From: a virus
Length of the DNA stretch: 64,000 bases
Virus record (IMG/VR): IMGVR_UViG_3300006841_000093
Span: 1 to 64,000 of that record
Direction: 5' to 3' (one strand)
Shown here: positions 18,948 through 62,679 of the stretch, in pieces
Layout: each line of letters begins with the position of its first letter
Numbering within the stretch: position 1 is the first letter of the stretch
The notes under the pieces: model-generated
The model's input: the letters and a program-made list of their open reading frames with translations, nothing else
Database searches by the model: none
Told to the model about the DNA's origin: nothing
Program-made: the position numbers and the translations under genes

Positions 18948-19526
18948 ATGGCTAAACGAAAATCAAGTAAGAATAAACTACACTATGTGGACAATGCCAA
19001 ATTTTTAGAGGCAATGATTGAATATAAAGCAGAATATGATAATGCACGTAAAAAGAATAAAGAACTTCCTCAAATTTCAGAATATCTAGGTTCAGTATTT
19101 TTAAAGATTGCTCAAAGATTATCATTCAGACCAAACTTCATAAATTATGCATTTAAAAATGATATGATTTCTGATGGAATAGAAAACTGTTTACATTATA
19201 TCCACAATTTCAATCCAGAAAAATCCAACAATCCCTTTGCTTATTTTACTCAAATAATTTATTACGCCTTTATTCGAAGAATTCAAAAAGAGAAAAAACA
19301 GTTATACATAAAATATAAAAGTATGCAAAACTATGAAACAAATCCTAATTATATGGATATTGATCTTAGTGGTGAAGCAAATGAGCATGAAAACATTAAT
19401 GATTATAAAAATTCAGATTTCAAAGTAATAGTTGATGAATTTGTAGATACCTTTGAAAAGAGTAAGAAAAAGAAAGTTACTAAGAAACAAGATACAGCTT
19501 TAGAACTTTTTATGAGTGCAGCATGA
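18948..19526 (+). CDS. gp55: Late transcription sigma factor
   Basis: 'HYVDNAKFLEAM', 'PNFINYAFKNDMISDGIENCL.YIHNFNPEKSNNPFAYFTQI'. Confidence 0.97.
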   Translation: MAKRKSSKNKLHYVDNAKFLEAMIEYKAEYDNARKKNKELPQISEYLGSVFLKIAQRLSFRPNFINYAFKNDMISDGIENCLHYIHNFNPEKSNNPFAYFTQIIYYAFIRRIQKEKKQLYIKYKSMQNYETNPNYMDIDLSGEANEHENINDYKNSDFKVIVDEFVDTFEKSKKKKVTKKQDTALELFMSAA

Positions 19527-32205: not shown

Positions 32206-32208
32206 TAA

Positions 32209-32244
32209 TTGGGGATGCCCTCATGGATGAGAAATTCCCCCCAA
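32209..32244 (+). other. Intergenic stem-loop between the BMP and permease genes
   Basis: TTGGGGA...TTCCCC outer stem enclosing a CTCAT-GG-ATGAG hairpin. Confidence 0.45.
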
Positions 32245-32263
32245 AAGAAAATGAAAGGTTAAT

Positions 32264-44191: not shown

Positions 44192-44851
44192 ATGAAACTT
44201 ACAGCAGAAACAGTCGCGATACTTAAAAATTACGCAGCAATAAATCAAAACATACAGTTTAAGGAAGGTAAGACATTATCAACCATTTCCCCCCAAAAAA
44301 ATATTTTATCAAGTGCAGAAATTAGTGAAGAGATTTCACAAACATTTGCTATCTATGATCTTAATAGATTATTAGCGGCAATGAGTGCTTATGATAAAAT
44401 TCCAGAATTAATACTTGAAGAGAATCGATTGTTAATTAATGGTCAAACAAAATATACTTATGGTGATCCGGCCATGTTAGTATTACCTCCAGAGAAAAAA
44501 CTTGATTTTCCGGAGCCGGAGATACAATTTAAAATGCCAAAAGATAAGTATGATATGTGTTTGAAAATGGCATCGATTTTACAAGTTCCAGAATTAGTTG
44601 TACAAGGAGATGGAAGTAAAATATTTTTAGTTGCAACTGATACTAATAATTCTTCAGCAGATCAACATCCAGAAGAAGTTGGAACTACAGATAAACAATT
44701 TCAGATGGTTTTCAAGATTGAAAATATGAAACTTTTAAGTGGAAATTATGAAGTTGGAATCTCTTCTAAAGGTATTTCACATTTTTCACATGAACATTCT
44801 AAATTACAATATTGGATAGCAACAGAACAAAATTCAACGTTTAATGGATAA
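44192..44851 (+). CDS. gp45: Sliding clamp
   Basis: 'MKLTAETVAILKNYAAINQNI', 'FAIYDLNRLL', 'FKIENMKLLSGNYEV', 'YWIATE'. Confidence 0.95.
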   Translation: MKLTAETVAILKNYAAINQNIQFKEGKTLSTISPQKNILSSAEISEEISQTFAIYDLNRLLAAMSAYDKIPELILEENRLLINGQTKYTYGDPAMLVLPPEKKLDFPEPEIQFKMPKDKYDMCLKMASILQVPELVVQGDGSKIFLVATDTNNSSADQHPEEVGTTDKQFQMVFKIENMKLLSGNYEVGISSKGISHFSHEHSKLQYWIATEQNSTFNG

Positions 44852-44853
44852 AC

Positions 44854-45792
44854 ATGGAAAACTTTTTATGGGTCGAAGAATTCCGTCCTAAGACTGTAGC
44901 GGATTGTATTCTTATAGAACCAACTAAAGAAGTCTTTCAAGGTTTCGTTGATGATGGTAAAATTCCTAATTTACTTTTATCTGGCGGAGCGGGAGTAGGT
45001 AAAACTACTGTTGCTCGTGCTATGTGTGATGAAATTGGTGTAGACCATTTAATGATCAACGGATCTAATGAGGGAAGAAATATAGATACAGTAAGAACTA
45101 CTTTACAACAATACTGTAGTTCAGTTTCCATGTCAGGTGGAAGAAAAGTAGTAATAGTCGATGAGGCAGATTATATGAATGCTGATTCGGTACAACCTGC
45201 ATTAAGGGGGTTCATTGAAAAATTTAGTGCCAATGTTAGTTTTATCTTTACTTGTAATTTCCGTAATCGGATTATTGATCCTATCCATAGTCGTTGCTCT
45301 GTAGTAGAATTTATTACTCCAAGATCAGAGAAACCAAAACTCGCTCAAGAGTGTTTAGTTAGGGTTAAAGAAATTCTAACACAAAAAGGAATTAAGTTTG
45401 AAGAAAAAGTACTTGCAGAATTAGTTTTGAAACATTTTCCAGATATGAGGAGAGTGATAAATGAACTTCAAAGATATGCAGCGGGTGGAATTATTGATGC
45501 CGGTATCTTAGCACAGATTGGTGAAATCAATCTTCTTGAACTGATGAAGGCGTTGAAGGAAAAACATTTTTCAGAAGTTCGTAAATGGGTTACACAAAAT
45601 ATCGATAATGATCCAGTAAAGATTTTTAGAAAGATTTATGATGGTGTACATGAACATCTCAAAGATACTTCAATTCCACAAGCTGTTCTTGTTATTGCAG
45701 AATATCAATATAAATCTGCGTTTGTTGCAGATCAAGAAATTAACTTAGTTGCCTGTCTCACAGAGATGATGGTTGATTGCGAGTTTAAATGA
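44854..45792 (+). CDS. gp44: Clamp loader large subunit
   Basis: 'LWVEEFRPK', 'GGAGVGKTT', 'VDEAD', 'IIDPIHSRC', 'ADQEINLVACLTE'. Confidence 0.97.
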   Translation: MENFLWVEEFRPKTVADCILIEPTKEVFQGFVDDGKIPNLLLSGGAGVGKTTVARAMCDEIGVDHLMINGSNEGRNIDTVRTTLQQYCSSVSMSGGRKVVIVDEADYMNADSVQPALRGFIEKFSANVSFIFTCNFRNRIIDPIHSRCSVVEFITPRSEKPKLAQECLVRVKEILTQKGIKFEEKVLAELVLKHFPDMRRVINELQRYAAGGIIDAGILAQIGEINLLELMKALKEKHFSEVRKWVTQNIDNDPVKIFRKIYDGVHEHLKDTSIPQAVLVIAEYQYKSAFVADQEINLVACLTEMMVDCEFK

Positions 45793-47237
45793 ACGAAGAA
45801 CTATTAAAAATATATGAAGATAATACAAATGAATATGGATTGCCGGTATTCGATTTATTTACTTGGCAAAATATAAATACAAAATATATTGATCCTGATA
45901 CTTCTTTGCCTATGTCTAAACGGGCTAAAGTCATGATCGATACTATGATACATTTCTTTGAAAAACACAAACCTAAATTTCCATTTAGAGATTTTGATGA
46001 GCACGATGTTAGACAAAACTTTTATACTTTATGTAATCTCAATCTAAAAGATAATATCTTCCCTAAAGAAAAATGTAAAACTGTACATGAAAAATACGAT
46101 GACTATGTAGGAAATTTTCCAGAATGGGGAATGGGTATTTTAAATTTTAGTTCAAATTATAATAATATTTCAGATATGTTCATGAATCGTGAACGAATGA
46201 AATGTAGTTATGATCGTTCACCTAGCCCAATTACTATGTGGAATGATCAAACAGATTTAAAACAAATTCTTTCTCCAATATGGAGACTTCATCCTGATTG
46301 TGGAATGCCACTCAAGAATAATTTATATATTGAGGGTGTTAGAGTCGGAGCATATTTTGCTACTCAGTTTAAACCTTCAGTAGCAAAAGCCTTTTATGAT
46401 TTTACTAAGTCTAAAAAAGTTCTTGACACAAGTTCAGGATGGGGTGATCGAATGGCAGGATTCTTTGCATCAAATGCCGAAGAATATTATGGTATGGACC
46501 CGAATGGTGATCTACATCAAAACTATCACTCAATGGCCGTACAATATAATAATTGGTTAGGTGCAGAGAATCCCCAAACTACAACTGGAGATAATTGGTT
46601 TCAAGTTGAAGGTAAAAAGAAAGTAAAAATTTATAGATCACCGGCAGAGGATTTGCCGTGGGATGAAATTCCAGATGATATTGATATCATGTTTAGTTCA
46701 CCTCCGTATTTTGCTACTGAAAAATATGCAGAAGGAAGCAAGTTCGAAAATGATCAATCATGGAGTCGTTATAATTCTTATGAAGCATGGAGAGATGGGT
46801 TTTATCTTCCAGTAATGAAAAAAGCATTTGAGAAATTATCTCCCGGTGGATGGTTAATGGTGAATATCATGGACCCAAAAGTTAAAGGTAAAAGACATAA
46901 ATCTTGTGATGATTTGGTAAATGATCTTAAAGAATATTTTGTAGGTCAAATTGGAATGAGAATTATGGCTAGACCTAAAAGTATTAAATCTTTTGAGGGA
47001 GATACCCATGAAGAAAGAAAAGCAAAATATGATGAATGGCAAGCAAAATGGTTTATTGAATCAGTTTGGTGTTTTAGAAAGCCTGATCCTAGTAATAATA
47101 ATGTTGATATCTTTGCTCCTTATAAAGATTCTACTTTGGATGGCATGGGGCCAATCGTTGTTCAACAACCTATTAAAAAGAAAAAGTTATCAGAAGCAAC
47201 AACTGAGAAATCTTCATTAGAGGGGTTTTTTGATTAA
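45789..47237 (+). CDS. Amino-DNA methyltransferase-like protein (SPPY type), copy 2
   Basis: 'DTSSGWGDRMAG', 'FSSPPYF'; C-terminal KSSLEGFFD. Confidence 0.85.
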   Translation: MNEELLKIYEDNTNEYGLPVFDLFTWQNINTKYIDPDTSLPMSKRAKVMIDTMIHFFEKHKPKFPFRDFDEHDVRQNFYTLCNLNLKDNIFPKEKCKTVHEKYDDYVGNFPEWGMGILNFSSNYNNISDMFMNRERMKCSYDRSPSPITMWNDQTDLKQILSPIWRLHPDCGMPLKNNLYIEGVRVGAYFATQFKPSVAKAFYDFTKSKKVLDTSSGWGDRMAGFFASNAEEYYGMDPNGDLHQNYHSMAVQYNNWLGAENPQTTTGDNWFQVEGKKKVKIYRSPAEDLPWDEIPDDIDIMFSSPPYFATEKYAEGSKFENDQSWSRYNSYEAWRDGFYLPVMKKAFEKLSPGGWLMVNIMDPKVKGKRHKSCDDLVNDLKEYFVGQIGMRIMARPKSIKSFEGDTHEERKAKYDEWQAKWFIESVWCFRKPDPSNNNVDIFAPYKDSTLDGMGPIVVQQPIKKKKLSEATTEKSSLEGFFD

Positions 47238-48036
47238 TGAAATCACACCATTAGAACAGTATAAAATAAAAGATAAAACTGTTCATGTAAAACGTGATGA
47301 TCTCATGGGAGATGGAGTTGAACATCCACCGTGGGGTAAACTGACTGCTCTACGTAAGGTGTTAGAGACTATTAATCCTCAAAAACCATTAATACATCTT
47401 TCTGTTTATGGGTCTTGGTCTGGATGGGCACTCTCTGAAGTGTCAAAAGAATTAGATTATGAATTTATTATGGCCTATCCTGACTCTAAGAAATTCCCAA
47501 AACATATTTTAGACAAATCAGAAAATGTTCTTCCTATTAAACCTAATATGATGAACGTGATGTATAATAAAGTGGGACAGATAGCAAGAGAAAAAGATTA
47601 CATTAGATTACCATATGCGTTTGATCATCTAGAGTATATTAAAACACAAAAAGCTAGACTATACGAAGTTAAACAAGAATTAGAGTTTGATCATTTAGTA
47701 GTTTCTTCTGGATCGGGAGTTACTTGTCTTGGAATGGTGATGGAACATGAACCGTGGCCACAATTATTTGATACAGGAAATACAAGAACTTTTCATACTG
47801 TATGTGTATCAAGTGAAGGAACTATTAAAAAGAAATTTAAAAAATATGGTATCGAACCAACAGAACAAGTTGAAATAGTCAAGAGTAAATTTGCATTTGA
47901 TGATATGATGGATTCGTATGAAACTCCATTTCCTTGTAATGAATTTTGGGATAAGAAGGCTTGGTATTGGTTAGAACAAAACATTGACAAATTTAAAGGT
48001 GAAATTTTATTTTGGAATCTGGGAGGTAACTGGTGA
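47230..48036 (+). CDS. PLP-dependent fold-type II enzyme (ACC deaminase/D-cysteine desulfhydrase-like)
   Basis: 'ITPLEQ...VHVKRDDL...WGKL', 'VVSSGSGVT', 'ILFWNLGG'. Confidence 0.75.
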   Translation: MINEITPLEQYKIKDKTVHVKRDDLMGDGVEHPPWGKLTALRKVLETINPQKPLIHLSVYGSWSGWALSEVSKELDYEFIMAYPDSKKFPKHILDKSENVLPIKPNMMNVMYNKVGQIAREKDYIRLPYAFDHLEYIKTQKARLYEVKQELEFDHLVVSSGSGVTCLGMVMEHEPWPQLFDTGNTRTFHTVCVSSEGTIKKKFKKYGIEPTEQVEIVKSKFAFDDMMDSYETPFPCNEFWDKKAWYWLEQNIDKFKGEILFWNLGGNW

Positions 48037-48245
48037 AAAAATTAGATGAAGATGTAATTAGAGTTTGTGGATGGGTATGTTCTTTGTTATGTGTATTAAT
48101 AGGATCATATTTTGTTTGGCCACACATTCATGTAGCACTATTAGGAATTGCATTTTTTTACTTTGCAGTGAGAATTTTCAATTTCTCCACTTTTAAAGAA
48201 TACGCAGAAGATCGTAAAAAACTTTTACATAGATTACAGGGGTAA
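48033..48245 (+). CDS. Small membrane protein (2 TM)
   Basis: Two hydrophobic stretches; overlaps the upstream stop. Confidence 0.55.
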   Translation: MKKLDEDVIRVCGWVCSLLCVLIGSYFVWPHIHVALLGIAFFYFAVRIFNFSTFKEYAEDRKKLLHRLQG

Positions 48246-48247
48246 CT

Positions 48248-49126
48248 GTGAGTAGAGTTGTATTAAAAGACAAAAAAGATATGAATGAAATCCATCAATT
48301 TGGTGATCACTTCAAAACGTGGGATGAAGTTACAGATAATGGAATGGAGTGGGAAGATTATAAAATCATGGGCTCACAAGATGAAATTGAACGTGATCTT
48401 GAAACACAAGTATTGAGTGTTAAGTTTTCCAAGATAGGACAAAAAACATTTGATGCATATCCAAATCTAAAATGGATTCAATGTAGAGCACACGGATCGG
48501 ATAATATCAATTTAGAATTAGCTGAAGCTCGTAGAGTGGGAGTTGTTTGTTTAGATCCAGATACAGAAAATGTTGCAAATTGGATTAACCGATGGAAAAG
48601 GGGTAAACGAATTTTATTATTAGGTGCAGGTAAAATTGGTAAGATGTTAGCTCTTGGTTTAGATCATGAAGTAACAGAAGTGACTTCCCAAACTGATTAT
48701 AATACAATTTATCCATACATGGACACGTTTGATACAATAATCGTTGCTTCATCACCTACATCTCAACCAATCGTAGATCACGCATTGTTAGAAAAATTTA
48801 ATGGAAGTATTATTTCTATATCAAGACCGGCGTGTATAGATAATGAGGCATTACTTGAAGCGGCGAAGGATGGTAGAATAACACATGCTCAAATGGATAT
48901 GTTAGATCCTAAAGGAAGAGAAGAATTAATAGAAACAGGAAAAGTAAAGTATCATAAACACACTGCATGGGAAGCACAAGGACTAAGCCAATATGATATG
49001 AGATATTTTGCTATGGTGTTTCAAGAAATACAATGGTTATTAGTGGATAAACCAACGTATGAACCGCCCATACGAAATAGTAGAATTGTTTTAGAACGAA
49101 AAGGTAATGCATTGTTTGGAGACTAA
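48248..49126 (+). CDS. D-isomer-specific 2-hydroxyacid dehydrogenase-like protein
   Basis: 'NLKWIQCRAHGSDNI', Rossmann 'LLGAGKIG', 'SISRPACID', 'MDML...HKHTAW'. Confidence 0.75.
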   Translation: MSRVVLKDKKDMNEIHQFGDHFKTWDEVTDNGMEWEDYKIMGSQDEIERDLETQVLSVKFSKIGQKTFDAYPNLKWIQCRAHGSDNINLELAEARRVGVVCLDPDTENVANWINRWKRGKRILLLGAGKIGKMLALGLDHEVTEVTSQTDYNTIYPYMDTFDTIIVASSPTSQPIVDHALLEKFNGSIISISRPACIDNEALLEAAKDGRITHAQMDMLDPKGREELIETGKVKYHKHTAWEAQGLSQYDMRYFAMVFQEIQWLLVDKPTYEPPIRNSRIVLERKGNALFGD

Positions 49127-50051
49127 CGAATTTCCTTATTATCCTACAGATGATGTTTGGAGGAGAGAAGAATTTTCTAAATTTATTCAGTATCAAGGAA
49201 ACTTATTGGATAATAAAATAATAAAACAGACTATGCATGGTCTAGCACTTTCGTGGTCTTATATGCCACACGCCTTTGATGTTAAATGTGGTAATATGAA
49301 TACACCTTTACAAACTTTTCTTAATGACAAAGAAAAGATCAAAAAGAAGATGGAGCAACTTGGTCATGTTGATTCGCCTTCAGGTTTGAGAAAAGCATTA
49401 AAGGTTATGTCAGGCTCACAAGGAGTTAGTAATTTTAGACCTACTGCGGCTCAAGCAATATATGAAAAGTTTTTACCAAATGGTGGAACTACATGGGATA
49501 TGTCTGGAGGTTATGGTGGAAGATTATTGGGAGCAATAAAAACTCAAATAAATTATATTGCTACTGAACCGGCGAAAGAAACGTTTGATGGATTGACTCA
49601 GATCGCAAAGGATTGGGGTCAACAATCAAACCTTTTTGGAATAAAACAACGTTTAGAAATAGTTCAGAGTGGAAGTGAAGATTATGTTCCAGAGGAAGAT
49701 TCATTAGATTTGTGTTTCACTTCACCGCCCTATTTTGATACAGAAAAATATTCTAATGAAGATACTCAAAGTTATAAAAAGTTTCCAAAGAAAGTAGATT
49801 GGTTAGAAGGTTTTTTACGAAAGACAATTCAAAACTGTCACCGAGGCTTAAAGAAAAATCGTTATTTAATTATCAATATAGCTAATGTTAGCTCATTTGA
49901 TACATTAGAAGATGAAACTGGAAATATAGTTTTGTCTGAAGGATTTGAATACTTAGATACATTTCAACTTTCTCTGTCAAAGATGCCAGGAAAGAATATT
50001 GCAAATGATGTATTCAAATATGAACCCGTATTTCTTTTCAGAAAGAAATGA
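49107..50051 (+). CDS. Amino-DNA methyltransferase-like protein (SPPY type), copy 3
   Basis: 'DMSGGYGGRLLG', 'CFTSPPYFDTEKYS'. Confidence 0.85.
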   Translation: MHCLETNEFPYYPTDDVWRREEFSKFIQYQGNLLDNKIIKQTMHGLALSWSYMPHAFDVKCGNMNTPLQTFLNDKEKIKKKMEQLGHVDSPSGLRKALKVMSGSQGVSNFRPTAAQAIYEKFLPNGGTTWDMSGGYGGRLLGAIKTQINYIATEPAKETFDGLTQIAKDWGQQSNLFGIKQRLEIVQSGSEDYVPEEDSLDLCFTSPPYFDTEKYSNEDTQSYKKFPKKVDWLEGFLRKTIQNCHRGLKKNRYLIINIANVSSFDTLEDETGNIVLSEGFEYLDTFQLSLSKMPGKNIANDVFKYEPVFLFRKK

Positions 50052-50069
50052 AATTCGGATATAGTACAC

Positions 50070-50097
50070 TTGACAAATTAAAAAGTCATGATATACT
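50070..50097 (+). promoter_or_regulatory. Sigma70-like promoter (TTGACA-N16-TATACT)
   Basis: TTGACA at 50070, TATACT at 50092. Confidence 0.7.
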
Positions 50098-50194
50098 ATA
50101 TAATAGTAGATAACAATATGGTTTTGTTATCAAGTAAGTTGTTATACCTTAAACGTGGTGGACGCAACTCTAAATAACTTTTTTGGAGATAGTA

Positions 50195-51229
50195 ATGGAA
50201 AATTACACAAATGGCAGTAGACTGCTACAAAATAAGACTGTACCTATTACAGTTATAGCTGAAAGATTAAATCTCTCACCTAAAAGAAAATCGTTCAATA
50301 AAAACGATTACCTACCAATAACTTACCTCAAAGCAAGTCAACTTAAAGTAGCCACAGATATTCAGAGAATAGTCATAATCTCGATGATTAAAGGGGCTAA
50401 AGTTTTTAATGGTAAATTAGCAAGACCTTTATATGTCTTTAAAAGACCAAATGGTGATTATGTTGTAACAGATGGACAACATACTGCAATTATTGCAATT
50501 TTGTATACTGAGGAACGTGGTGATGTTATATTGCCTTGTCAAATAGATATACATCCCTCACATTATACCATTGAAGAATGTGAAGCGGCGGAAGCCCAAA
50601 AGTTTAGGGAGTTAAACAGTAAACGTAGACAAGCTGGTAAAGTAGATAGACTTAGGGCAGATATTGCAGAAGGACTTGAAGAGGCCTTACAGACTTTATC
50701 AGACCTAGTAGATATGGGTGTCCATGTTGAAAGACTTGGAAACGAAGATGGGCCTGAAGTTCATGGTTATTCTAAGTTAATGGAGGCACATAAAGCCTAT
50801 GGACTTAAAAGTGTTTGTTTAGCAATCGAACTATATCAAAAACTTCAAAACGATTCCAAATTTAGGAAGTGGAATAATATTGAAAAACCCCTTAATGGTG
50901 GTTTAATTGGTGGACTGGCAGCAGTTTACTATTTTATCAGAGAATATCTTGGAGAAGGTGATAAAAGGTTCGCTCTTGAAACTTTTTTAGATGATTATCT
51001 GGGTAAATTCAAACCAAAAGATTTGTTAGAGGGTACAGCAGGTGTTTCACAAGCTGTTCTTATTGCCCGAAAAATTATTATTAGTTGCAATACCCAAATA
51101 GATCTAGAACATATAACAAAGAAAAATGGTAATGTTCTAGAAGTAAATATTGGAGAAGAACTTTTGTCTCAAGCTGGATTGGGTGATCCTAGTAAAATGA
51201 AAAGGGAATTGACCAACTCCAGAACCTGA
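50195..51229 (+). CDS. ParB-like/DGQH-motif domain protein
   Basis: 'DIQR...PLYVFKRPNGDYVVTDGQHT'; ATG at 50195 with GGAG RBS. Confidence 0.65.
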   Translation: MENYTNGSRLLQNKTVPITVIAERLNLSPKRKSFNKNDYLPITYLKASQLKVATDIQRIVIISMIKGAKVFNGKLARPLYVFKRPNGDYVVTDGQHTAIIAILYTEERGDVILPCQIDIHPSHYTIEECEAAEAQKFRELNSKRRQAGKVDRLRADIAEGLEEALQTLSDLVDMGVHVERLGNEDGPEVHGYSKLMEAHKAYGLKSVCLAIELYQKLQNDSKFRKWNNIEKPLNGGLIGGLAAVYYFIREYLGEGDKRFALETFLDDYLGKFKPKDLLEGTAGVSQAVLIARKIIISCNTQIDLEHITKKNGNVLEVNIGEELLSQAGLGDPSKMKRELTNSRT

Positions 51230-51238
51230 AAATATTAA

Positions 51239-52675
51239 ATGTGTGGATTCGTAGCTGGAAATATTTTTAAAGATACAAAACACTTTCATGCCGCGTTGAG
51301 TCTTATTGATCATCGCGGTAGAGATTATAAAGGTGTTAATTATTGTATTAAAACAAATACTTACTTAGGTCATAATAGACTTTCTATTCAGGGGTTGACT
51401 GAGGAATCTAATCAACCTATGATTAAAGATAATTATACATTAGTTTATAATGGTGAATTATGGCACAGTATGAATCCACATAAAGAAAAATTCAATTTAC
51501 AGACTAGTAGTGATACAGAGTTGTTACTCAATATGTTTCACTTAGACCAACAAGATTGTATCAAAACACTTGATGGTATGTTTGGGTTTGCGGTCTTGGA
51601 TAATAAAAGAAATTACTTGACCTTTGCTAGAGATTTTATGGGTAGAATTCCCTTGTACTTTTTCAAGAGAGGTAAAGAAATTATCGTAGCAAGTGAACTA
51701 AAAGCAATTACAAACTCATTGAACATTAATGCTTCTGATGTAGTATTAGCAGATCCAGGTTGTTACTATCAATTTGATTATGTAACAGGAGAATTGACAA
51801 AGAGAACATATTATGAATTTCCTGCAATGGATGATATTGAAGATATGTCAGAAGAAGAAGTGATGGATGGTATACGTAATTTATTAACTGAAGGTGTACA
51901 TAATGAGTTAATAAGTGATGTACCTGTTTGTACAATTTTGTCAGGCGGAGTAGATTCTACTGTCGTTACATATCTACTCAAACAAAAAATTCCAGATCTA
52001 CAAGCATTTGTAGTGAGTATGGGTGATACTGGAAAGAAAGATGATTTGTACTATGCAAGAATGGCGGCTAAAGAAATTGGTGTTCCACTCCATGAAGTTA
52101 TTATTGATGAGGAGTGGGTAGAACAAAATTTAACTGAAGCAGTCTATGCAGTCGAAGATTTTAGTTGGACACAAGTTTCTCCGGCGGTTGCTCAATTAGC
52201 ACTTTCCAAAAGAATTCATGATGAAGGGTTTAAGGTCGTCTTTGGTGGAGAAGGTAGTGATGAATTGTTTGCTTCCTATGGACATGTATTTGCGTGGAAC
52301 TATGAAGATAAAGATTACATCAAAGAACGATATAAGCTGGTAGTAAATCTCCACAAAAACAATTTAATACGAACCAACAAAGCAATGATGTATGGTGGAA
52401 CAGTAGAATTAAGAACACCATTTCTTCACAAAGATTTGGTCGAATTTTGTTTGAGAATTCCCCCGAAGTATAAGCAAACAGCCGATAGAGTGTGGAAACC
52501 AATGTTAAGAAAAGCTTTTTCTGGCAAACTTTCAGATGAATTATTATTCAGACCAAAAAAGACTTTTCAAGATGGTTGTCACACTATCTACCTCAAGAAT
52601 CATAAGGAAAGAATTAAAGAAACGTATTTGACGCATTATGGTCAAAAAAATCCATTAGAGAGTTTTTTCGGATGA
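51239..52675 (+). CDS. asnB: Asparagine synthetase B-like glutamine amidotransferase
   Basis: N-terminal Cys 'MCGF', 'HRGRD', 'HNRLSI', 'YNGEL', 'LSGGVDS', 'GEGSDELF', 'ELRTPFL'; C-terminal NPLESFFG. Confidence 0.9.
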   Translation: MCGFVAGNIFKDTKHFHAALSLIDHRGRDYKGVNYCIKTNTYLGHNRLSIQGLTEESNQPMIKDNYTLVYNGELWHSMNPHKEKFNLQTSSDTELLLNMFHLDQQDCIKTLDGMFGFAVLDNKRNYLTFARDFMGRIPLYFFKRGKEIIVASELKAITNSLNINASDVVLADPGCYYQFDYVTGELTKRTYYEFPAMDDIEDMSEEEVMDGIRNLLTEGVHNELISDVPVCTILSGGVDSTVVTYLLKQKIPDLQAFVVSMGDTGKKDDLYYARMAAKEIGVPLHEVIIDEEWVEQNLTEAVYAVEDFSWTQVSPAVAQLALSKRIHDEGFKVVFGGEGSDELFASYGHVFAWNYEDKDYIKERYKLVVNLHKNNLIRTNKAMMYGGTVELRTPFLHKDLVEFCLRIPPKYKQTADRVWKPMLRKAFSGKLSDELLFRPKKTFQDGCHTIYLKNHKERIKETYLTHYGQKNPLESFFG

Positions 52676-53772
52676 AATTATATAATGAAGATTGCATGAA
52701 ACAAATGCAAGAGATGATTGATGATGGAATTCAAGTTGATTCTGTTGTTACAGATCCCCCATACGGTATTCATTTTATGGGTAAGGATTGGGATAAATTT
52801 AAAGGTACTAAAGTTACCAAGAGTCAAGTAGTTACAAATTTGGGAGCAGGAATGAGAATGACTACTCACAAAGAAAATATGGATTTTCAGAAATGGTGTA
52901 ACGAATGGGCAATTTTGTGTTTAGAGTTATTAAAGCCAGGTGGTTATATTTTAGCATTTAGTTCTTCAAGGACTTATCATCATTTGGCTTGTGGTATTGA
53001 ATCAGCAGGATTTGAAGTACGAGATCAACTTATGTGGTTGTATGGTTCAGGATTTCCAAAGAGTATGAATATCGGAAAAGGTTGGGGAACTGCACTCAAA
53101 CCAGCACACGAACCTGTTGTTATGGCGAGGAAACCAGTTGAAGGAACTGTCGCAGATAATGTTTTGAAACATGGAACAGGTGGTATCAATATTGATGATT
53201 GTAGAATAGATTTATCTGAAGGTGATGATCCAAGATTGGGCGGTAAAGGAACTTGGAAAACTGATAAGATGGCAAAAGATGTTTATGTTGGTGGATATGC
53301 AGGAGAAGATCAAGGATCAAGTGAGTTGGGTAGATTTCCAGCAAATGTGATGCACGATGGTTTAGAACAAGAGTGGGCACGATTCTTCTATTGTCCAAAA
53401 GTTTCTAGAAATGAAAGGAACGGGGGATTGGAAAATATGGAAGAAAAGATACACAATACAGAAGATTGTACTAATTTACCATCTATAAGAACTAATAGTG
53501 TAAATACTTCTAGTGGGAAACAAAGAACAGTCAATCCTACCAAAAATAATCATCCAACAGTCAAACCGATTGAGTTGATGAAATACCTTTGTCGCCTTGT
53601 AACTCCAAAAGGTGGAATTGTTCTTGATCCATTTATGGGTTCAGGTTCTACTGGAATGGCTGCGAAGGATGAAGGATTTGATTTTGTGGGAATTGAACGG
53701 GAGAAGGAATATTTTGAGATTGCAGAAGCACGTATCAATGCTTCTTCACCTTTATTGGATTTTTTTGAATAA
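52672..53772 (+). CDS. DNA methyltransferase, N4/N6 beta class
   Basis: 'VTDPPY' before 'HPTVKP' and 'VLDPFMGSGST'; C-terminal SPLLDFFE. Confidence 0.92.
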   Translation: MKLYNEDCMKQMQEMIDDGIQVDSVVTDPPYGIHFMGKDWDKFKGTKVTKSQVVTNLGAGMRMTTHKENMDFQKWCNEWAILCLELLKPGGYILAFSSSRTYHHLACGIESAGFEVRDQLMWLYGSGFPKSMNIGKGWGTALKPAHEPVVMARKPVEGTVADNVLKHGTGGINIDDCRIDLSEGDDPRLGGKGTWKTDKMAKDVYVGGYAGEDQGSSELGRFPANVMHDGLEQEWARFFYCPKVSRNERNGGLENMEEKIHNTEDCTNLPSIRTNSVNTSSGKQRTVNPTKNNHPTVKPIELMKYLCRLVTPKGGIVLDPFMGSGSTGMAAKDEGFDFVGIEREKEYFEIAEARINASSPLLDFFE

Positions 53773-53822
53773 ACACTTGACTTTTTCATCAAAACCGTGG
53801 TATAATATAACTGAACAATGAG
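53767..53822 (+). promoter_or_regulatory. Early promoter cassette copy 4 (TTGACT-N18-TATAAT ... AACAATGAG)
   Basis: Near-identical to the copy at 40328. Confidence 0.85.
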
Positions 53823-53833
53823 TAATAACCTTA

Positions 53834-54103
53834 ATGAGAGAGAATATGTTTGAGTTCAGAGCGGGTAGAAAACGAGTCGTAAAAACAGTTGAAACTGTAG
53901 ATGAAGCTAACAAATTGATGAGAGCAATGATTGCGATTCGCAATAACGATTCCCTTTGGGAAAATATTAATGTGAAAACTGGACATCTCCGTGCAGTTGA
54001 TGAATTGGAAAAGTTAGTCGGCACTATCTTTGATGTGTTTGATACTATGTCCATTTATGTAAATGGTAAATCTGTAAGGAAAATTTGGGCGAGGGGTTTC
54101 TAA
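53834..54103 (+). CDS. Hypothetical protein
   Basis: First ORF after the early promoter. Confidence 0.6.
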   Translation: MRENMFEFRAGRKRVVKTVETVDEANKLMRAMIAIRNNDSLWENINVKTGHLRAVDELEKLVGTIFDVFDTMSIYVNGKSVRKIWARGF

Positions 54104-54654
54104 TGAGAGACTTTAGTATTGTAGAAACTGCTTCTAGGGCAGAAATGAAAGAAATTTTATTTTATGTTTTGAAGTGGTTTAAGAAAAAAACACTTGGTAA
54201 TCCATTTAATTATAATCGAGCATTTGAGTGGTTACAGGCTGAAATTCTTGGTTTTGAATTAGAGAAAGTAGGTGGTGGTTCTGATGGAAAAGATAAAGAT
54301 GGTGTAACAGCGGAGTTTAAAGCTTCTGCTTGGAAAGGTCTTGGCGCGAAGGGTCAAGAATTGACAAACTCTTTTACATACAATGGAACAAGTCGATATG
54401 AAGATTGGAATGAACAAGAAGATTATTGTCTGAAAAAGATTTTTCGTGATCCTTTTCATTTTTGGTCTATCATCAATTATGAGGAAGGGAAATTCGTAAA
54501 AACATTTAAAGTTCCTGCAGAAACAGTTTGTAATTTACTTATGCCTAAATGGACAAATAGTTGGAAAAATCCTAGTAAAAAAGATCCGAGAATAGGTGGT
54601 TCAGTTTCAACTAAAGATTTAGCAGGAGAAAATTTTGAAATCATCAATCACTAA
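54103..54654 (+). CDS. Putative PD-(D/E)xK restriction-like endonuclease
   Basis: 'RAFE...GGSDG...AEFKAS' arrangement; adjacent to a DNA MTase. Confidence 0.5.
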   Translation: MRDFSIVETASRAEMKEILFYVLKWFKKKTLGNPFNYNRAFEWLQAEILGFELEKVGGGSDGKDKDGVTAEFKASAWKGLGAKGQELTNSFTYNGTSRYEDWNEQEDYCLKKIFRDPFHFWSIINYEEGKFVKTFKVPAETVCNLLMPKWTNSWKNPSKKDPRIGGSVSTKDLAGENFEIINH

Positions 54655-55363
54655 ACAAACAGATTTAGAATTACTTTCTACGATTAAAAATAATTCTGTT
54701 GATCTGGTTCTTACAGATCCACCGTATATTATCTCTAGAAAATCTGGGATGCAATCCTATAAAAATAGTTTAGAGAAGGGTGGAAAGGTAGATGAAAAAT
54801 TTGGAAAGAAATATGCTATAACTACTGAATTTGGTGAGTGGGATAATTCTTACACTATAGATGATTTAGAAAAAGCGATAAATGAATTTTATAGAATACT
54901 AAAATCTGGTGGTTCATGTATTATATTTTTTGATATATGGAAAATAGAAACTCTGTCAAAGTTGTTAAGTAAATTTTCCAAACATAGATTTATTGAATGG
55001 GTTAAATCAAATCCAATGCCAGTCAATCAATATGCAACATATCTATCAAATGCAAGAGAGATAGCTATTAGTTGTGTAAAAGGTGGTAAGGCAACATTTA
55101 ACAGTAAATATGATAATGGAATTTATGATTATCCAATATATGGCGGAAAAGATAGATTTCATCCTACTCAAAAATCTTTACCGATGTTTGAGGAATTAAT
55201 TAAAAAACATTCTAATGAAGGAGATACAGTAGTTGATCCTTATGCCGGAAGTGGTACTACTGCGGTAGCCGCTATAAACACAAATAGAAATTATTTGTGC
55301 TGTGAACCCTCTGATGAATATTTTGAGAAGGGGAAAAAAAGATGTGAAGATGCAAAAGCATAA
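54635..55363 (+). CDS. DNA methyltransferase, N4/N6 beta class
   Basis: 'VLTDPPY', 'FHPTQKS', 'VVDPYAGSGTT'. Confidence 0.92.
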   Translation: MKSSITKQTDLELLSTIKNNSVDLVLTDPPYIISRKSGMQSYKNSLEKGGKVDEKFGKKYAITTEFGEWDNSYTIDDLEKAINEFYRILKSGGSCIIFFDIWKIETLSKLLSKFSKHRFIEWVKSNPMPVNQYATYLSNAREIAISCVKGGKATFNSKYDNGIYDYPIYGGKDRFHPTQKSLPMFEELIKKHSNEGDTVVDPYAGSGTTAVAAINTNRNYLCCEPSDEYFEKGKKRCEDAKA

Positions 55364-55371
55364 ATAATTTT

Positions 55372-56472
55372 ATGGAATTACAGCAGTTTAAAGAAGTTAG
55401 TCAATTATTCATGGATTATGATGGAGAAGTTCAGATTAATCCATTTGCAAAGGTTCATTGGGGTACTGTTCAAGAGAATCACCTCAATGGAAAACTGTTT
55501 GTTGACAATGATAAAAACTATGGTATAATAGGTAGTGAGGCTAAAACAAGTAGAGAAGTAAAAGATTTTTCTAATCAAGTTGTTGGTCAAATTAAAGTAG
55601 GAGATATCTGTATCAAGAGATTTTTCTACAAAGAAGGATATAGAGAAAATGTAGTAAATCATATTTCGAAAATGAGAGAATCAACATTCGGAGATCGTGA
55701 TTTATGGTTTACTCATATTAATATGGAACATGAAGGAGATAAAGCGGTTGCTAAAGAATTTAATGCAACTTGGTTATCTTCAAGAATAGACGCGGTAGCA
55801 GCAGAAGTTAGAGGAGTATATTATTCTGGAGAACAAAAACAAATAGGATTAGGAAAACATGAAAATATTCCTTGTTGTAGATTAGATTATCCATATATTG
55901 AAGGATTAGATGAATTTTCAGAAGAATTAGATGAATACGTGAAAGATGGATGGGGAATAGCAGATCATCAAAAATCTTATGGTGGTAAAGATAAAACGTG
56001 GACATCTATCGAAATAATACCATTAATAGTTACTTATGGTACTAAAAAAGCAAAACAAGGTCTTAGGGGCGATTTAAACGAAGAATATATTAAGAGATTT
56101 CCTATTATTGAGAATATTATCAATCAGATAACCACTTTTGATGACTGTTTGTGGTTAGCAGTTGCTAAAGTATCTCCAAAAGGTGGTAATATATCAAGAC
56201 ATAGTGATAAAGGTATCGACAAAATGAATGCCGGAATACAGATTGGTAAAACGGCAAGAATACATTATGTGATGAAATCTAATCCTGAAACATATTTTCA
56301 ATTACAAGACCTTCAGGGAAAGACTCATAAATATTCTATGAAACAAGGTGAATATTGGTATATGGATAAGAGAAAACCCCACTCCGTATACAATAAAGGT
56401 GATACATTTAGGTATCACATGATTTTTGATATGAAAGTAACACAAGATTTATGGGACCATTTGATTTTATAA
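55372..56472 (+). CDS. Aspartyl/asparaginyl beta-hydroxylase-like 2OG oxygenase with an extra N-terminal domain
   Basis: C-terminal 'ISRHSD...RIHY...KPHSVYN...RYHMIFD' (HxD...H...R). Confidence 0.75.
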   Translation: MELQQFKEVSQLFMDYDGEVQINPFAKVHWGTVQENHLNGKLFVDNDKNYGIIGSEAKTSREVKDFSNQVVGQIKVGDICIKRFFYKEGYRENVVNHISKMRESTFGDRDLWFTHINMEHEGDKAVAKEFNATWLSSRIDAVAAEVRGVYYSGEQKQIGLGKHENIPCCRLDYPYIEGLDEFSEELDEYVKDGWGIADHQKSYGGKDKTWTSIEIIPLIVTYGTKKAKQGLRGDLNEEYIKRFPIIENIINQITTFDDCLWLAVAKVSPKGGNISRHSDKGIDKMNAGIQIGKTARIHYVMKSNPETYFQLQDLQGKTHKYSMKQGEYWYMDKRKPHSVYNKGDTFRYHMIFDMKVTQDLWDHLIL

Positions 56473-56855
56473 AAGCAATCAATACACATAAAAATATCAT
56501 GAAAGATGGTGATCCATTGGCTGAAAAGGATTATGTACCTTTTCTTGTTAATCGTGGTTTATCGTTTTTTCAAGATACTGTTATACAAGTCAATGAAATG
56601 AATAGGTTACATTTTATTGACCACAAGCTCCAATTCGATTATTTGCTAAATAACATTAGACCAAGAAAGAGATGGTCTAAGTGGTTGAAACCAGACAAAA
56701 TTGATAATCTAGAACTAGTCAAAGAGTATTTTGGTTTCGGTAATGAAAAAGCAAAGGATGCTCTTGAAATCCTTTCTAGTGAGGATATCGAAGAGATTAA
56801 GAGAAAACTTGCAAAAGGTGGAATGGAGAAAAATAATGACAGTAAACATAGATGA
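56451..56855 (+). CDS. gp62: Clamp loader small subunit
   Basis: 'FDFIKAIN...YVPFLVNRGLSFFQDT...NEMN...IRPRKRWSKW...VKEYFG'. Confidence 0.93.
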   Translation: MGPFDFIKAINTHKNIMKDGDPLAEKDYVPFLVNRGLSFFQDTVIQVNEMNRLHFIDHKLQFDYLLNNIRPRKRWSKWLKPDKIDNLELVKEYFGFGNEKAKDALEILSSEDIEEIKRKLAKGGMEKNNDSKHR

Positions 56856-57270
56856 GATGGTGGAATGTACATTAACAGAACCTGATGATTTTTTAAAAAT
56901 TAGAGAGACATTGACTAGAATTGGAGTAGCATCCAGAAAAGATAAAACTCTGTATCAATCATGTCATATATTACATAAACAAGGAAGATATTTTATTGTA
57001 CACTTTAAAGAATTATTTGCACTTGATGGTAAACCAACCAATTTTTCAGAAAATGATCAAGCGAGAAGAAACACAATAGCAAACTTATTAGCAGAATGGG
57101 GATTAATTAAATTAGTAAATCCTGATCAATCTTCTGCATTAGTTGTCCCGTTAAATCAATTAAAAATTCTAGCATATAAAGAAAAAGATGAATGGGCATT
57201 AACCGCAAAATACAATATTGGAAGTAAGAAAGTAAATTATGAGTACGGCGAAGAAGAAGGTGGTAACTAA
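56836..57270 (+). CDS. regA: Translational repressor RegA
   Basis: 'PDDFLKIRETLTRIGVASRK...LYQSCHILHKQGRYFIVHFKELFALDG'. Confidence 0.97.
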   Translation: MTVNIDEMVECTLTEPDDFLKIRETLTRIGVASRKDKTLYQSCHILHKQGRYFIVHFKELFALDGKPTNFSENDQARRNTIANLLAEWGLIKLVNPDQSSALVVPLNQLKILAYKEKDEWALTAKYNIGSKKVNYEYGEEEGGN

Positions 57271-60204: not shown

Positions 60205-62679
60205 ATGTCAAAATTTTATACTAACGTAGTATGTCTAGGTAATTATATTTTCGAAAGGGGAATAGAAAATGGATTACCTTTTGAAGAAAGACATGAATTT
60301 AAACCTACCTTATATATTCCTACCACAACTGAAACTAAATGGCGAACACTTGAAGATGAGCCAGTAGCCCCTGTTCAATGGGGATCTATTAAAGAAACCC
60401 GCGAATCAGTAAAAAAGTATGAAGGTGTAGATAACATGAAAATCTACGGCCATACAAATTATAATTATTCTTTTATTGCTGAAACATATCCAGAAAATAT
60501 TGATTACAATTTAGAACATCTTAAAATGATGTTTCTAGATATTGAAGTTGCTTCTGAACAAGGATTTCCTGATCCTGAAAACGCATCAGAAGAAGTAGTT
60601 GCCATTACTACAAAGATGGGTGATGATATTCAAGTTTGGGGTTGTAATGAATTTAAGAATGATAAAGAGGATATTACATATAATAGATGTTTTGATGAAC
60701 GACAATTATTAGAAGAATTTGTCATGTATTGGCAGAAGAATTGTCCTCATGTAATTTCTGGTTGGAACACAAAAACATTTGATACTCCATATCTTATTAA
60801 CAGAATTCGTAATATCTTAAATGAAACGTGGGTCAAGAAACTTTCACCGTGGGGATTTGTTAAAGAACAAAAAATCTTTGGTATGGGTGGTCGTGAAGTT
60901 CAGACTTATGAAATCTATGGTGTGTCTGAAATTGATTACTTGGATGCCTACAAGAAGTTTACTTATACTAATCAAGAGTCATATAGATTAGATCATATTG
61001 CTTATGTAGAATTGGGTCAAACTAAACTAGACTTTTCTGAAGTAGCAACACTCCATGAATTGTACAAGAAAGATTTTCAAAAGTTCATTGAATACAATAT
61101 TCAAGATACATTATTGGTTAGTCGCCTTGAAGATAAATTAAAACTTTTAGAATTGATTATTTCTCTGGCATATCTGTCGAAGTGTAATCTCACAGATGTA
61201 TTTGCACAGACTAGAATGTGGGATTGTATTATTTACAATCATCTTTTGAGAGAGAAAATTGTAATTCCTCAAAAGACTAAACATAGTAAAGGTGATATGT
61301 ATGAGGGTGCTTATGTTAAAGCACCACAATGTGGTAGACATGAATGGATTGTGAGTTTTGATTTAAACAGTCTATATCCACATTTGATTATGCAATATAA
61401 TATTTCTCCTGAAACCATCTTAGGACAATGGAAAGATGAAATAGGAGTAGAAGGTTTAATCGATAAAGAATTTGATACATCAGTTTGGAAACAAAAAGAT
61501 ATAACAGTTACACCGAATGGATCTGTTTATCGTAGAGATAAGCAAGGGTTTCTTCCCCAATTAATGGAAAGTATGTACAATGATAGGGTGAAATATAAAA
61601 AGAAAATGTTAGATGAACAGAAAAAGGGAAGAAACTCTGATCCAAATAAATTATCACAATATTACAACTATCAACAAAATTTAAAGATTGCATTAAACTC
61701 CGCCTATGGAGCAATGGGTAATCAATGGTTTCGTTATTATGATGAACGTAATGCAGAAGCAGTTACTGCAGCAGGTCAGTTATCAATTCAATGGGCCGAG
61801 AATGCAGTAAACAATTATTTAAACAAAACATTAGGTACACAAGATGTTGACTATATTGTTGCTATGGATACTGATTCTTTATATGTTCGTCTTGATGATC
61901 TTGTTTCTAGAATTGGTATTACCGATAAGGAAAAAATCATTGGATTCTTGGACAAGGCCTGTGGAAGAATCGAAGAAGTAATTGAAAAATGTTATACTGA
62001 ATTAGCGGAGTACATGAACGCCTATCAACAAAAGATGGTCATGAAACGTGAGGTCATTGCTGATACAGGAATTTGGACAGCAAAGAAACATTATATTCTG
62101 AACGTTCACGATTCTGAGGGTGTTCGATATGAAGAACCAAAATTAAAGATTGTGGGTATTGAAGCAATTAAAAGTTCAACACCAGAAGCATGTAGACAAT
62201 CACTTAGAGAGATTTTCAATATTATTATTTCAGGCACAGAAGATGATGTTATTGGTTATATTGAAAAGTTTAAAGAGAAGTTTTTTGGTTTGAATATGGA
62301 AGCTGTAGCATTTCCAAGATCTGTTAATGGATTAAAAAAATATAAAGATTCAGCAACAATTTATAAAAAATCAACTCCAATTCATGTTAAGGGAAGTTTA
62401 ATTTATAATCACATGTTGAGGACTAAGAAATTAACTAGAAGATATCCTGTTATACAAGAGGGTGAAAAGGTTAAGTTCACTTATCTCAAAGATCCAAATC
62501 CAGCAGGTGATAAAGTAATTTCTGTATTAAATAGTTTACCAAAAGAATTTGAATTAGAGAAATATATAGATTATGATACCCAATTTGAGAAAGCATTTAT
62601 CGAACCATTAAAAGGTGTATTAGATGTAATTGGGTGGGAAACAGAGAGAAAGTCAAGTCTTGACAATTTTTTTATATAG
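60205..62679 (+). CDS. gp43: Family B DNA polymerase
   Basis: Exo 'FLDIEV', 'SFDLNSLYP', 'KIALNSAYG', 'DTDS'; C-terminal KSSLDNFFI. Confidence 0.98.
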   Translation: MSKFYTNVVCLGNYIFERGIENGLPFEERHEFKPTLYIPTTTETKWRTLEDEPVAPVQWGSIKETRESVKKYEGVDNMKIYGHTNYNYSFIAETYPENIDYNLEHLKMMFLDIEVASEQGFPDPENASEEVVAITTKMGDDIQVWGCNEFKNDKEDITYNRCFDERQLLEEFVMYWQKNCPHVISGWNTKTFDTPYLINRIRNILNETWVKKLSPWGFVKEQKIFGMGGREVQTYEIYGVSEIDYLDAYKKFTYTNQESYRLDHIAYVELGQTKLDFSEVATLHELYKKDFQKFIEYNIQDTLLVSRLEDKLKLLELIISLAYLSKCNLTDVFAQTRMWDCIIYNHLLREKIVIPQKTKHSKGDMYEGAYVKAPQCGRHEWIVSFDLNSLYPHLIMQYNISPETILGQWKDEIGVEGLIDKEFDTSVWKQKDITVTPNGSVYRRDKQGFLPQLMESMYNDRVKYKKKMLDEQKKGRNSDPNKLSQYYNYQQNLKIALNSAYGAMGNQWFRYYDERNAEAVTAAGQLSIQWAENAVNNYLNKTLGTQDVDYIVAMDTDSLYVRLDDLVSRIGITDKEKIIGFLDKACGRIEEVIEKCYTELAEYMNAYQQKMVMKREVIADTGIWTAKKHYILNVHDSEGVRYEEPKLKIVGIEAIKSSTPEACRQSLREIFNIIISGTEDDVIGYIEKFKEKFFGLNMEAVAFPRSVNGLKKYKDSATIYKKSTPIHVKGSLIYNHMLRTKKLTRRYPVIQEGEKVKFTYLKDPNPAGDKVISVLNSLPKEFELEKYIDYDTQFEKAFIEPLKGVLDVIGWETERKSSLDNFFI

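Follow-up and report, generated by a model that had tools for sequence, protein, structure and literature searches.

A mobile gene module in the replication cluster of a marine T4-like phage and its probable role in DNA hypermodification

In T4, the clamp-loader genes gp44 and gp62 are adjacent. In the marine T4-like phage considered here they are separated by a 10.7-kb island, which raises the question of what the island genes do and which of them belong together. The window analysed covers positions 1 to 64,000 of a 134.5-kb virus record (IMG/VR IMGVR_UViG_3300006841_000093; complete according to CheckV; 34% GC). The gp44 of this phage is at most 57% identical to those of cyanomyoviruses and of Pelagibacter phage HTVC008M. 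The left border of the island is gp44, the clamp-loader large subunit (44854..45792; Pfam Gp44_lid and AAA), and the right border is gp62, the small subunit (56451..56855; Pfam Phage_clamp_A, 2.2e-13). A regA gene, recognised by Pfam Translat_reg, belongs to the same cluster as gp45, gp44 and gp62. The island, its borders, gp45, gp43 and the promoters before F and I all lie on the plus strand. An earlier note on this DNA had described eleven co-oriented, mostly overlapping genes between the borders. The arrangement is as described, but the open reading frames (ORFs), called A to L here, number twelve. The enzyme types proposed for them are recovered by Pfam, NCBIfam and PHROG, except that the ParB-like label of F is weak and the nuclease J is a lead only.

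The twelve genes do not behave as one unit. The island is composite, with a core of A, B, D and G (plus optional E and L) and variable, promoter-bounded add-ons, F, H and I-J-K. We consider it probable, at about 0.65, that the core encodes a mobile, post-replicative, clamp-tethered phage DNA hypermodification module. The catalytic residues are intact in A, B, D, G and L. The product is most likely a still-undescribed complex group on phage DNA bases. Thus, the base hypermodification pathway that the earlier note had proposed for the whole island is supported for the core, which is co-inherited, includes a homolog of a DNA-acting pyridoxal phosphate (PLP) enzyme, has a DNA precedent for its AsnB-family member, and is accompanied by clamp-type tails on A, G and H. 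It does not extend to the whole island.

The most informative gene is B, a fold-type II PLP enzyme (47230..48036). By itself it gives a weak Pfam PALP match and a PHROG match to 'threonine dehydratase' (4e-21). Among 50,697 phage records, however, its only relatives are the gp52 homologs found in M6/YuA-like Pseudomonas phages, in Bordetella phages and in a handful of other phages. B aligns end to end with gp52 of phi_M6 by hhalign (260 columns, probability 99.8%, E 3.5e-28), and tblastn of B against M6 covers residues 1-265 (E 2e-16). In phi_M6, the match lies between a gene in the aGPT-Pplase position and an SPL-like radical-SAM gene. The two proteins share the family motifs TPxExY...VKRxDL, PFPCNxF[WY]DxKxWxWL and FWNxG. 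K37 of B is invariant in 17 family members and aligns with the K36 region of M6, and a glycine-rich loop is also present. A profile of B gives weak PDB matches to cysteine synthase and to ACC deaminase 1j0a. As purified enzymes, M6 gp52 and its counterpart gp226 of ViI remove the carboxyl group from amino-acid:nucleobase conjugates in DNA; both were modelled on 1j0a, with K36 proposed to form the Schiff base (PMC8989533). These alignments place B in the M6 gp52/ViI gp226 family of DNA-acting PLP enzymes. The nearest characterised relative is a decarboxylase, not a deaminase, and by analogy B would decarboxylate an amino acid that is carried on a DNA base. B has 494 relatives in the databases and is encoded on 152 viral-contig stretches. 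A pattern scan of 185,579 cellular species genomes found no relative of B, a weak negative limited by the pattern method. We set aside the idea that B and D act as an anti-restriction SAM lyase, because their partners need S-adenosylmethionine (SAM) and B fuses with A-family domains.

The core genes travel together. The order A-B-D-(E)-G-(L) is kept across 22 IMG/VR loci that encode a B homolog (numbered with the prefix L below). Where gp44 identity exceeds 90%, the module occupies the gp44-gp62 gap. In a lineage with about 56% gp44 identity (L017, L019 and L020), the DNA polymerase gene comes first, and A-B-D-G-L begins at its stop codon or immediately behind it. In more distant phages, a set of G-like, B and A-like genes is found directly upstream of the polymerase, and L035 and L036 show the order gp44-A-TS-like-G'-B-gp62, in which TS-like denotes a short gene resembling thymidylate synthase. 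Neighbours within 6 kb were also counted at the 33 non-redundant B loci that are flanked by 3 kb or more on each side. An A/E-family gene is present near B at 28 of the 33 loci, a G-like gene at 19, D at 19 and L at 10. The TS-like gene is found at 14 of them and never together with D. Furthermore, B and A-family domains are joined in single metagenomic proteins in opposite orders. P0191 combines A-like, PALP and GNAT-like LPG_synthase_C regions, and P0271 combines B (46% identity, E 6e-77) with an A-like domain (E 7e-21). A, B, D and G, with optional E and L, thus form a co-inherited mobile unit that occupies three positions in the replication cluster. Gene co-occurrence, which the earlier note had named as a check, is found for this core and not for the whole island. 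The TS-like genes themselves encode 232-235 residues (for example L035:1852-2559 and L060:5790-6488) and, in further phage lineages, lie alongside B and genes of the G-like and A-like types.

A second line of evidence comes from the C-termini. In T4, the C-termini of gp43, gp55 and gp33, which are both hydrophobic and acidic, bind gp45 and can replace one another (PMC2988020). We scanned 201 non-overlapping ORFs for L-x-x-F-[FLM] at the C-terminus, followed by no more than three further residues, and compared the count with 2000 shuffles. Seven of the 201 genes carry such a tail, against 0.45 expected and a shuffle maximum of 3. The family-B DNA polymerase gp43 (60205..62679; Pfam DNA_pol_B with an exonuclease domain) ends in SSLDNFFI, which serves as the reference tail, and the late sigma factor gp55 (18948..19526, plus strand; phrog_234, 1.8e-55), which represents another known type of clamp-binding protein, ends in TALELFMSAA. 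Within the island, A ends in SSLEGFFD, G in NPLESFFG and H in SSPLLDFFE. A third A paralog outside the island (36531-37715) ends in SPLSKFFQ. The seventh gene is a 94-residue ORF elsewhere in the genome (123645-123929; L096:646-930) that ends in SADLGKFMT. This ORF may be a gp33-type late co-activator; it has no PHROG or phage-database match, and its identity as gp33 could not be confirmed.

The tails persist in relatives behind divergent linkers. They read STLEEFFK, NTLESFFN and STLEDFFV in A, and DSLEEFMT, QSLEKFMGT and NSLEKFME in G, where the tail is kept in relatives at 66-97% identity. The polymerase tails on the contigs of these relatives, GSLEDFFN and TTLEDFFG, resemble the A and G tails found there. 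The polymerases of HTVC008M and S-T4 end in SNLEDFF and SLEDFFG, and the genes in the gp44-gp62 gap of these two phages have no such tail. J and K are also tailless. The C-termini of L (Q-x-x-L-x-x-L-I) and of D (conserved R-x5-F / LFGD) may be weaker variants. From these motifs, A, G and H are predicted to be tethered through their tails to the sliding clamp and to act on DNA. The proposed docking platform is gp45 (44192..44851; Pfam gp45-slide_C, 2.6e-9). A relative also carries an extra 167-residue ORF between A and B (L007:9505-10008), which ends in SNASLAGFFD and has no Pfam family.

The tails also bear on the role of G (51239..52675; Asn_synthase, 1.7e-52, with GATase), the core glutamine-dependent AsnB-type amidotransferase or adenylating enzyme. 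G is complete, with Cys2, the glutaminase domain and the PP-loop. Compared with E. coli AsnB (1ct9), the PP-loop and the regions of E348 and K449 are kept, and TTIR is changed to TQVS, K376 to L and D384 to N. We take these three sites of AsnB to be substrate or transition-state residues. Against PRK09431, G scores 287 and stays below the cut-off of 499. An AsnB homolog that acts on DNA has a precedent in CmoY of cyanophage S-B43, which ligates glycine to 5-carboxymethylcytosine in DNA (Yang et al., PMC12783734). The ligase cluster reported there as second in size carries a glutaminase domain, and ParB-domain genes are often found close by (PMC12783734).

Homology alone would allow a metabolic role for G. 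The island could then be a hyperplastic region in which auxiliary metabolic genes, unrelated to one another, work on free metabolites (synthesis of asparagine, and 2-oxo acids handled by the PLP enzyme and the dehydrogenase) beside ordinary DNA methyltransferases. HTVC008M, S-T4 and cyanophages have an insertion hotspot in the gp44-gp62 gap; speD, purL and 2-oxoglutarate (2OG) oxygenase genes are located near gp44 in cyanophages; and the genome is rich in metabolic genes (IMPDH/GMP-reductase-like, phosphoribosyltransferase and halogenase). G also scores above the cut-off of the asparagine synthase model TIGR01536. The strongest argument against a metabolic role is the polymerase-type clamp tail of G, which is conserved in relatives. 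In addition, the B family of cultured phages is known only from DNA hypermodification clusters, the core genes move jointly, A and B fuse, and G departs from E. coli AsnB at the three sites above. We therefore regard the metabolic explanation as improbable.

What would place the first group on the base? A (45789..47237) is a core class-I SAM-dependent transferase-like protein with an SPPY motif and a partial Pfam N6_N4_Mtase match. Its SAM motifs are intact, with D213-x-S-x-G217-W-G219-D-R221 as motif I, D237, and S304-P-P-Y307 (SPPYF) as motif IV. An AlphaFold2 (AF2) model (pLDDT 92) gives a class-I methyltransferase fold with an N-terminal extension, and about the last 30 residues (452-480) are disordered, forming the linker before the tail. 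The nearest solved folds are O-methyltransferases, TrmN, Trm11, Trm14, METTL5 and PrmC (Z 12-14.7). Single-sequence PDB searches with A, B and F returned chance matches only, and an A-family profile found no match in the PDB. The A family comprises 3803 cluster representatives, some of which are fused to beta-class DNA methyltransferase or helix-turn-helix (HTH) domains. E (49107..50051), identified through Pfam and PHROG, is an SPPY paralog of A and an optional core member, present in L005, L007, L011 and L015 and missing from L006, L012 and L014. The third paralog outside the island (plus strand) matches Pfam Methyltransf_25 and partially N6_N4_Mtase. The 321-residue gene just upstream of it (35564-36529) was considered as kin of extra module genes in L017 and L038 and proved unrelated.

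The fold of A raises the possibility that the module targets RNA (tRNA or rRNA) or protein instead of DNA. Its closest solved structures include the tRNA and rRNA amino-methyltransferases TrmN, Trm11, Trm14 and METTL5 as well as PrmC, which methylates protein. Wybutosine, acp3U and diphthamide offer examples of aminocarboxypropyl transfer, side-chain hydroxylation and PP-loop amidation. However, the clamp-type tails are common to the polymerase and gp55, the module lies inside or beside replisome genes in three lineages, A-like domains are fused to beta-class DNA methyltransferase and HTH domains, and B is homologous to DNA-acting enzymes. An RNA or protein target is therefore a remote alternative.

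For the favoured DNA hypermodification module, the absence of other initiating enzymes narrows the choice. The genome has no match to CmoA (TIGR00740), and 5-HMUDK kinase, aGPT-Pplase/AADT and radical-SAM enzymes are missing among the island proteins by Pfam, PHROG and NCBIfam. Because no hydroxymethylase, CmoA, kinase or amino-acid:DNA transferase was found, A (and E) are the only candidates for placing a group on DNA. Methyltransferase-fold enzymes transfer aminocarboxypropyl groups in the wybutosine and opine metallophore routes. We propose that the tails of A, G and H dock on gp45, so that these enzymes would act just behind the replication fork. A, with its SPPY motif and a pocket of the exocyclic-amine type, would install a SAM-derived group bearing an alpha-amino acid on N4 of cytosine or N6 of adenine. 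The likeliest candidate for this group is 3-amino-3-carboxypropyl, because it alone among SAM-derived groups provides both the alpha-amino acid required by the B family and the carboxylate required by G. B would then work on the amino-acid part, which it may decarboxylate, as in M6, or turn into a 2-oxo acid. D would reduce a 2-oxo acid to a 2-hydroxy acid. G would convert the remaining carboxylate to a primary amide with ammonia derived from glutamine. Where L is present, it may acylate and/or hydroxylate the side chain. In this route, every enzyme would perform a reaction typical of its family. The final modification would shield phage DNA from restriction. Among the add-ons, F may be a ParB-type helper, H would be an ordinary clamp-tethered DNA methyltransferase, and I-J-K appears restriction-modification-like. 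Aminocarboxypropyl chemistry is a tentative assignment, with the odds leaning against it. Somewhat more doubtful is the full picture of an undescribed base in which aminocarboxypropyl on an exocyclic amine of cytosine or adenine is trimmed to an amine, hydroxy acid or amide by clamp-riding enzymes.

The assignments of D and L rest on conserved catalytic residues. D (48248..49126) belongs to the D-2-hydroxyacid dehydrogenase family, with Pfam 2-Hacid_dh_C (PF02826, 31.7) and 2-Hacid_dh (PF00389, 29.9) both above the cut-off. R193, D217 and H238 are invariant in 17 homologs and probably represent the catalytic Arg/acid/His triad. L (55372..56472) is an optional core member that fuses a GNAT-like domain to an Fe(II)/2OG oxygenase (Pfam Asp_Arg_Hydrox, 2.5e-10). 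Residues 1-156 adopt a GNAT-like fold (AF2 model, pLDDT 85), with Z scores of 10.5-12.1 to many acetyltransferases in structure comparisons by Foldseek and VIA. The C-terminal domain is a double-stranded beta-helix that resembles proline cis-4-hydroxylase (Z 15.9, root-mean-square deviation 2.5, 174 residues aligned) and AspH (Z 14.4). R-H277-x-D279, H337 and R347 are invariant, corresponding to the H-x-D...H triad and the 2OG-binding arginine. Structural-atlas clusters containing L are viral only. The idea that L is an ancestral resident of the gp44-gp62 gap was rejected, as it shows no similarity to the gap genes of HTVC008M or S-T4. The GNAT-like 5' part of L also holds a perfect 12/12 sigma-70 promoter match with a TG extension (55502-55529), which may serve gp62-regA as an internal promoter or have arisen by chance.

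The same DNA-directed module might begin differently. A and E could be plain N6-adenine or N4-cytosine methyltransferases, or aminopropyl or carboxymethyl transferases, with B, D, G and L building on their product. In one variant, aminopropyl would come from decarboxylated SAM made by B, or carboxymethyl from carboxy-SAM of the host. SPPY and intact SAM motifs suit ordinary amino-methyltransferases, and SAM itself is an amino acid tethered to a nucleoside, like the substrate of M6 gp52. Carboxymethylation followed by AsnB-type amidation is the proven logic of CmoX and CmoY, and modules with a TS-like gene instead of D suggest an alternative way of making the handle. On the other hand, the genome lacks CmoA (TIGR00740) and a ThyA-like enzyme (PF00303). 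A methyl group offers nothing to PLP, dehydrogenase or amidotransferase chemistry, and aminopropyl has no carboxylate for G or D. We regard such a start as unlikely, though less so than the metabolic explanation or an RNA or protein target.

Several observations weigh against a DNA hypermodification module of the favoured kind. The reading draws on genes and not on DNA chemistry, and clamp binding is predicted from C-terminal motifs. B, E and F have no tail, and more distant G-like proteins have other C-termini that are unlike the tails of their own polymerases. G passes the NCBIfam asparagine synthase model TIGR01536 (284 bits; cut-off 267.1) and has no relative in phage S-B43, the CmoY phage, by tblastn even at E<=1. 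In fold, A is as close to RNA amino-methyltransferases and to O-methyltransferases as to any other enzymes, and the fold by itself points neither to a DNA substrate nor to aminocarboxypropyl as opposed to methyl transfer. Most members of the A family are probably plain methyltransferases. B as a decarboxylase and G as an amidotransferase would compete for the same carboxylate of the aminocarboxypropyl group, and D needs a 2-oxo or 2-hydroxy acid, which no proven step supplies. Finally, L is not obligatory, because the close relatives L006, L012 and L014 do not have it. The sequence of alkylation, deamination, reduction, amidation and hydroxylation that the earlier note put forward is speculative.

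How does the proposed module compare with known systems? In phages M6 and ViI, a 5-HMUDK kinase, an amino-acid:DNA transferase, a radical-SAM isomerase and the PLP decarboxylase gp52/gp226 build modified thymidines (PMC8989533). The likeness lies in a full-length gp52 homolog, in the proposed logic by which an amino-acid-like group on a DNA base is tailored after replication, and in a mix-and-match set of tailoring enzymes that includes an acetyltransferase-type fold. Unlike these phages, the window genome has no dUMP/dCMP hydroxymethylase, and the island has no matches to the kinase, aGPT-Pplase/AADT or radical-SAM enzymes. Instead, B is partnered here by a SAM-dependent SPPY enzyme, a 2-hydroxyacid dehydrogenase and an AsnB-type amidotransferase. 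In Synechococcus phage S-B43, the CmoA-CmoX-CmoY system makes 5-carboxymethylcytosine and its glycine amide (PMC12783734). Both systems are found in marine T4-like phages, and the proposed order of SAM-family alkyl transfer followed by AsnB-family ATP-dependent amidation is similar, with the AsnB-family gene beside the transferase gene and many ligases with a glutaminase domain as in G; ParB-domain proteins often lie near those ligases, and F is a tentative counterpart here. However, CmoA has no match here, G has no tblastn kin in S-B43, and A and E carry SPPY of the exocyclic-amine type (PF01555) instead of SPPC of the C5-cytosine type with its carboxylate-binding arginine. PLP, dehydrogenase and oxygenase steps are added in the present module. 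By family membership, the module thus appears to hold one enzyme family each from the M6/ViI and CmoX/CmoY systems without the initiating enzymes of either, and its apparent additions are the 2-hydroxyacid dehydrogenase, the GNAT-oxygenase fusion and the clamp tails.

More distant parallels concern single features. The tails resemble the epitopes of T4 gp43, gp55 and gp33 in being short, hydrophobic and acidic, and placed behind a variable linker (PMC2988020); unlike those, they are found here on enzymes of DNA-modifying type, namely a SAM transferase, an amidotransferase and a methyltransferase. ParB-dependent phage T-dioxygenases (PMC13229309) likewise combine a ParB-like helper with a DNA-modifying enzyme in phage modification clusters, but F is only weakly ParB-like and belongs to the accessory genes (window and L005), and an oxygenase of the 5mYOX/TET type is absent. 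Should the SPPY and G readings be right, the product could carry an alkyl group with an amide on an exocyclic amine, as in the N6-carbamoylmethyl-adenine made by phage Mu Mom. The enzymes are unrelated, the present route would take several genes, and the likeness rests on modelled fold. Mom has a GNAT-like fold, as has part of L. An analogy for clamp-tethered modification is eukaryotic DNMT1, which is tethered to PCNA. In an incomplete literature search, we found no paper describing an A-B-D-G module and no account of clamp-tethered phage modification enzymes or aminocarboxypropyl-DNA.

The remaining genes are variable. C (48033..48245) is a hydrophobic ORF of 70 residues with no family match, seen in this window only. 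It is an insertion between B and D; relatives start D at the stop codon of B. F (50183..51229; probable true start at ATG 50195) follows a near-consensus sigma-70 promoter with an extended -10 (50070..50099; 11/12 match with TG). It matches phrog_2558 (5e-57), and no Pfam, NCBIfam or PDB sequence match was found. F is tentatively ParB/Srx-like, as suggested by a weak match to the ParB-like phrog_1033 (7e-4) and a DGQH motif. Its homolog in phage S-RIM2 adjoins a Dam-type methyltransferase; being Dam-type, that enzyme is not a counterpart of H. H (52672..53772; N6_N4_Mtase, 7e-38) is an accessory beta-class N6/N4 DNA methyltransferase with DPPY. It matches PF01555 over its full length (131 bits, profile positions 1-220/221), with DPPY N-terminal and motif I C-terminal.

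A second promoter of the same type (53777..53806; 11/12 match with TG) precedes I-J-K, and another lies at 44125 before gp45. I (53834..54103), the first gene of this promoter-bounded cassette, encodes 89 residues without a family match and is conserved at 81-96% in L005, L007 and L011. J (54085..54654; phrog_35715) is a candidate PvuII-like type II restriction endonuclease, a lead that comes from its similarity to Endonuc-PvuII clusters of the structural atlas (feature score 0.94, TM 0.71). Its presumed partner K (54635..55363; N6_N4_Mtase, 4.3e-33) is a beta-class N6/N4 DNA methyltransferase with DPPY that matches PF01555 with 116 bits (profile positions 1-219/221) and shows the same motif order as H. 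Among the 22 loci, F, J and K are found in the window and L005 only. The same holds for H, although relatives of H exist elsewhere. Relatives keep I and swap J-K for unrelated unknown proteins of 213 and 309 residues. With its own promoter, I-J-K looks like a separate restriction-modification-type cassette. The idea of the island as a single pathway fails on these add-ons, as F, H and I-J-K are variable and promoter-bounded, and J-K resembles a separate restriction-modification pair. In the island of one relative, a 482-residue gene (L016:5054-6502) has a sub-threshold GmrSD_N match (E 9e-6) and may encode a modification-dependent nuclease beside the modification genes.

Is the interrupted clamp-loader locus itself unusual? 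The break that the earlier note had pointed out is real, but other marine T4-like phages are also interrupted here. In HTVC008M and S-T4, the gap holds two or three genes, including a 2OG oxygenase and a small methyltransferase, so the T4 adjacency is a poor baseline for marine relatives. In many cyanophages gp44 adjoins speD or purL. A SAM decarboxylase gene is found beside gp44 or gp45 in cyanophages S-B64, S-H35, S-RIM4 and S-T4, the same replisome slot that holds SAM-dependent modification genes in the window phage. The GC content of the island equals that of its flanks (0.31-0.38), and megablast of the island against the 50,697 phage records gave no match.

Other genes bear on nucleotide supply. 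A dUTPase/dCTP-deaminase-like gene (57239-57823) directly follows regA, ThyX is encoded at genome positions 92947-93537, and the complete 134.5-kb genome has no match to ThyA-like PF00303. This combination suggests a canonical dTTP supply and no pre-replicative pyrimidine replacement. Unusual auxiliary genes run from 27551 to 35433. They include a Trp-halogenase family gene (27551-29107), an IMPDH/GMP-reductase-like gene (29644-30636), a Bmp/PnrA-like nucleoside-binding lipoprotein (30955-32205), a phosphoribosyltransferase (33398-33952) and a 295-residue protein with a class-II aminoacyl-tRNA-synthetase core (34546-35433, minus strand; phrog_29758).

Hypermodifications of phage DNA govern the outcome of encounters with restriction, CRISPR and other defences, and they are a source of DNA-labelling enzymes. 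To our knowledge, the characterised multi-step hypermodification routes all start from 5-hydroxymethylpyrimidines or from carboxy-SAM. The present module is common in uncultured marine T4-like phages, and neither of these starting points is present. If the proposed reading is true, neither an aminocarboxypropyl-type DNA modification nor a hypermodification machinery coupled to the clamp would have a precedent. The polymerase-type tails offer a concrete, testable link between base modification and the phage replication fork. In T4-like genomes, they may also serve as a simple sequence marker that separates DNA-acting enzymes from their metabolic look-alikes.

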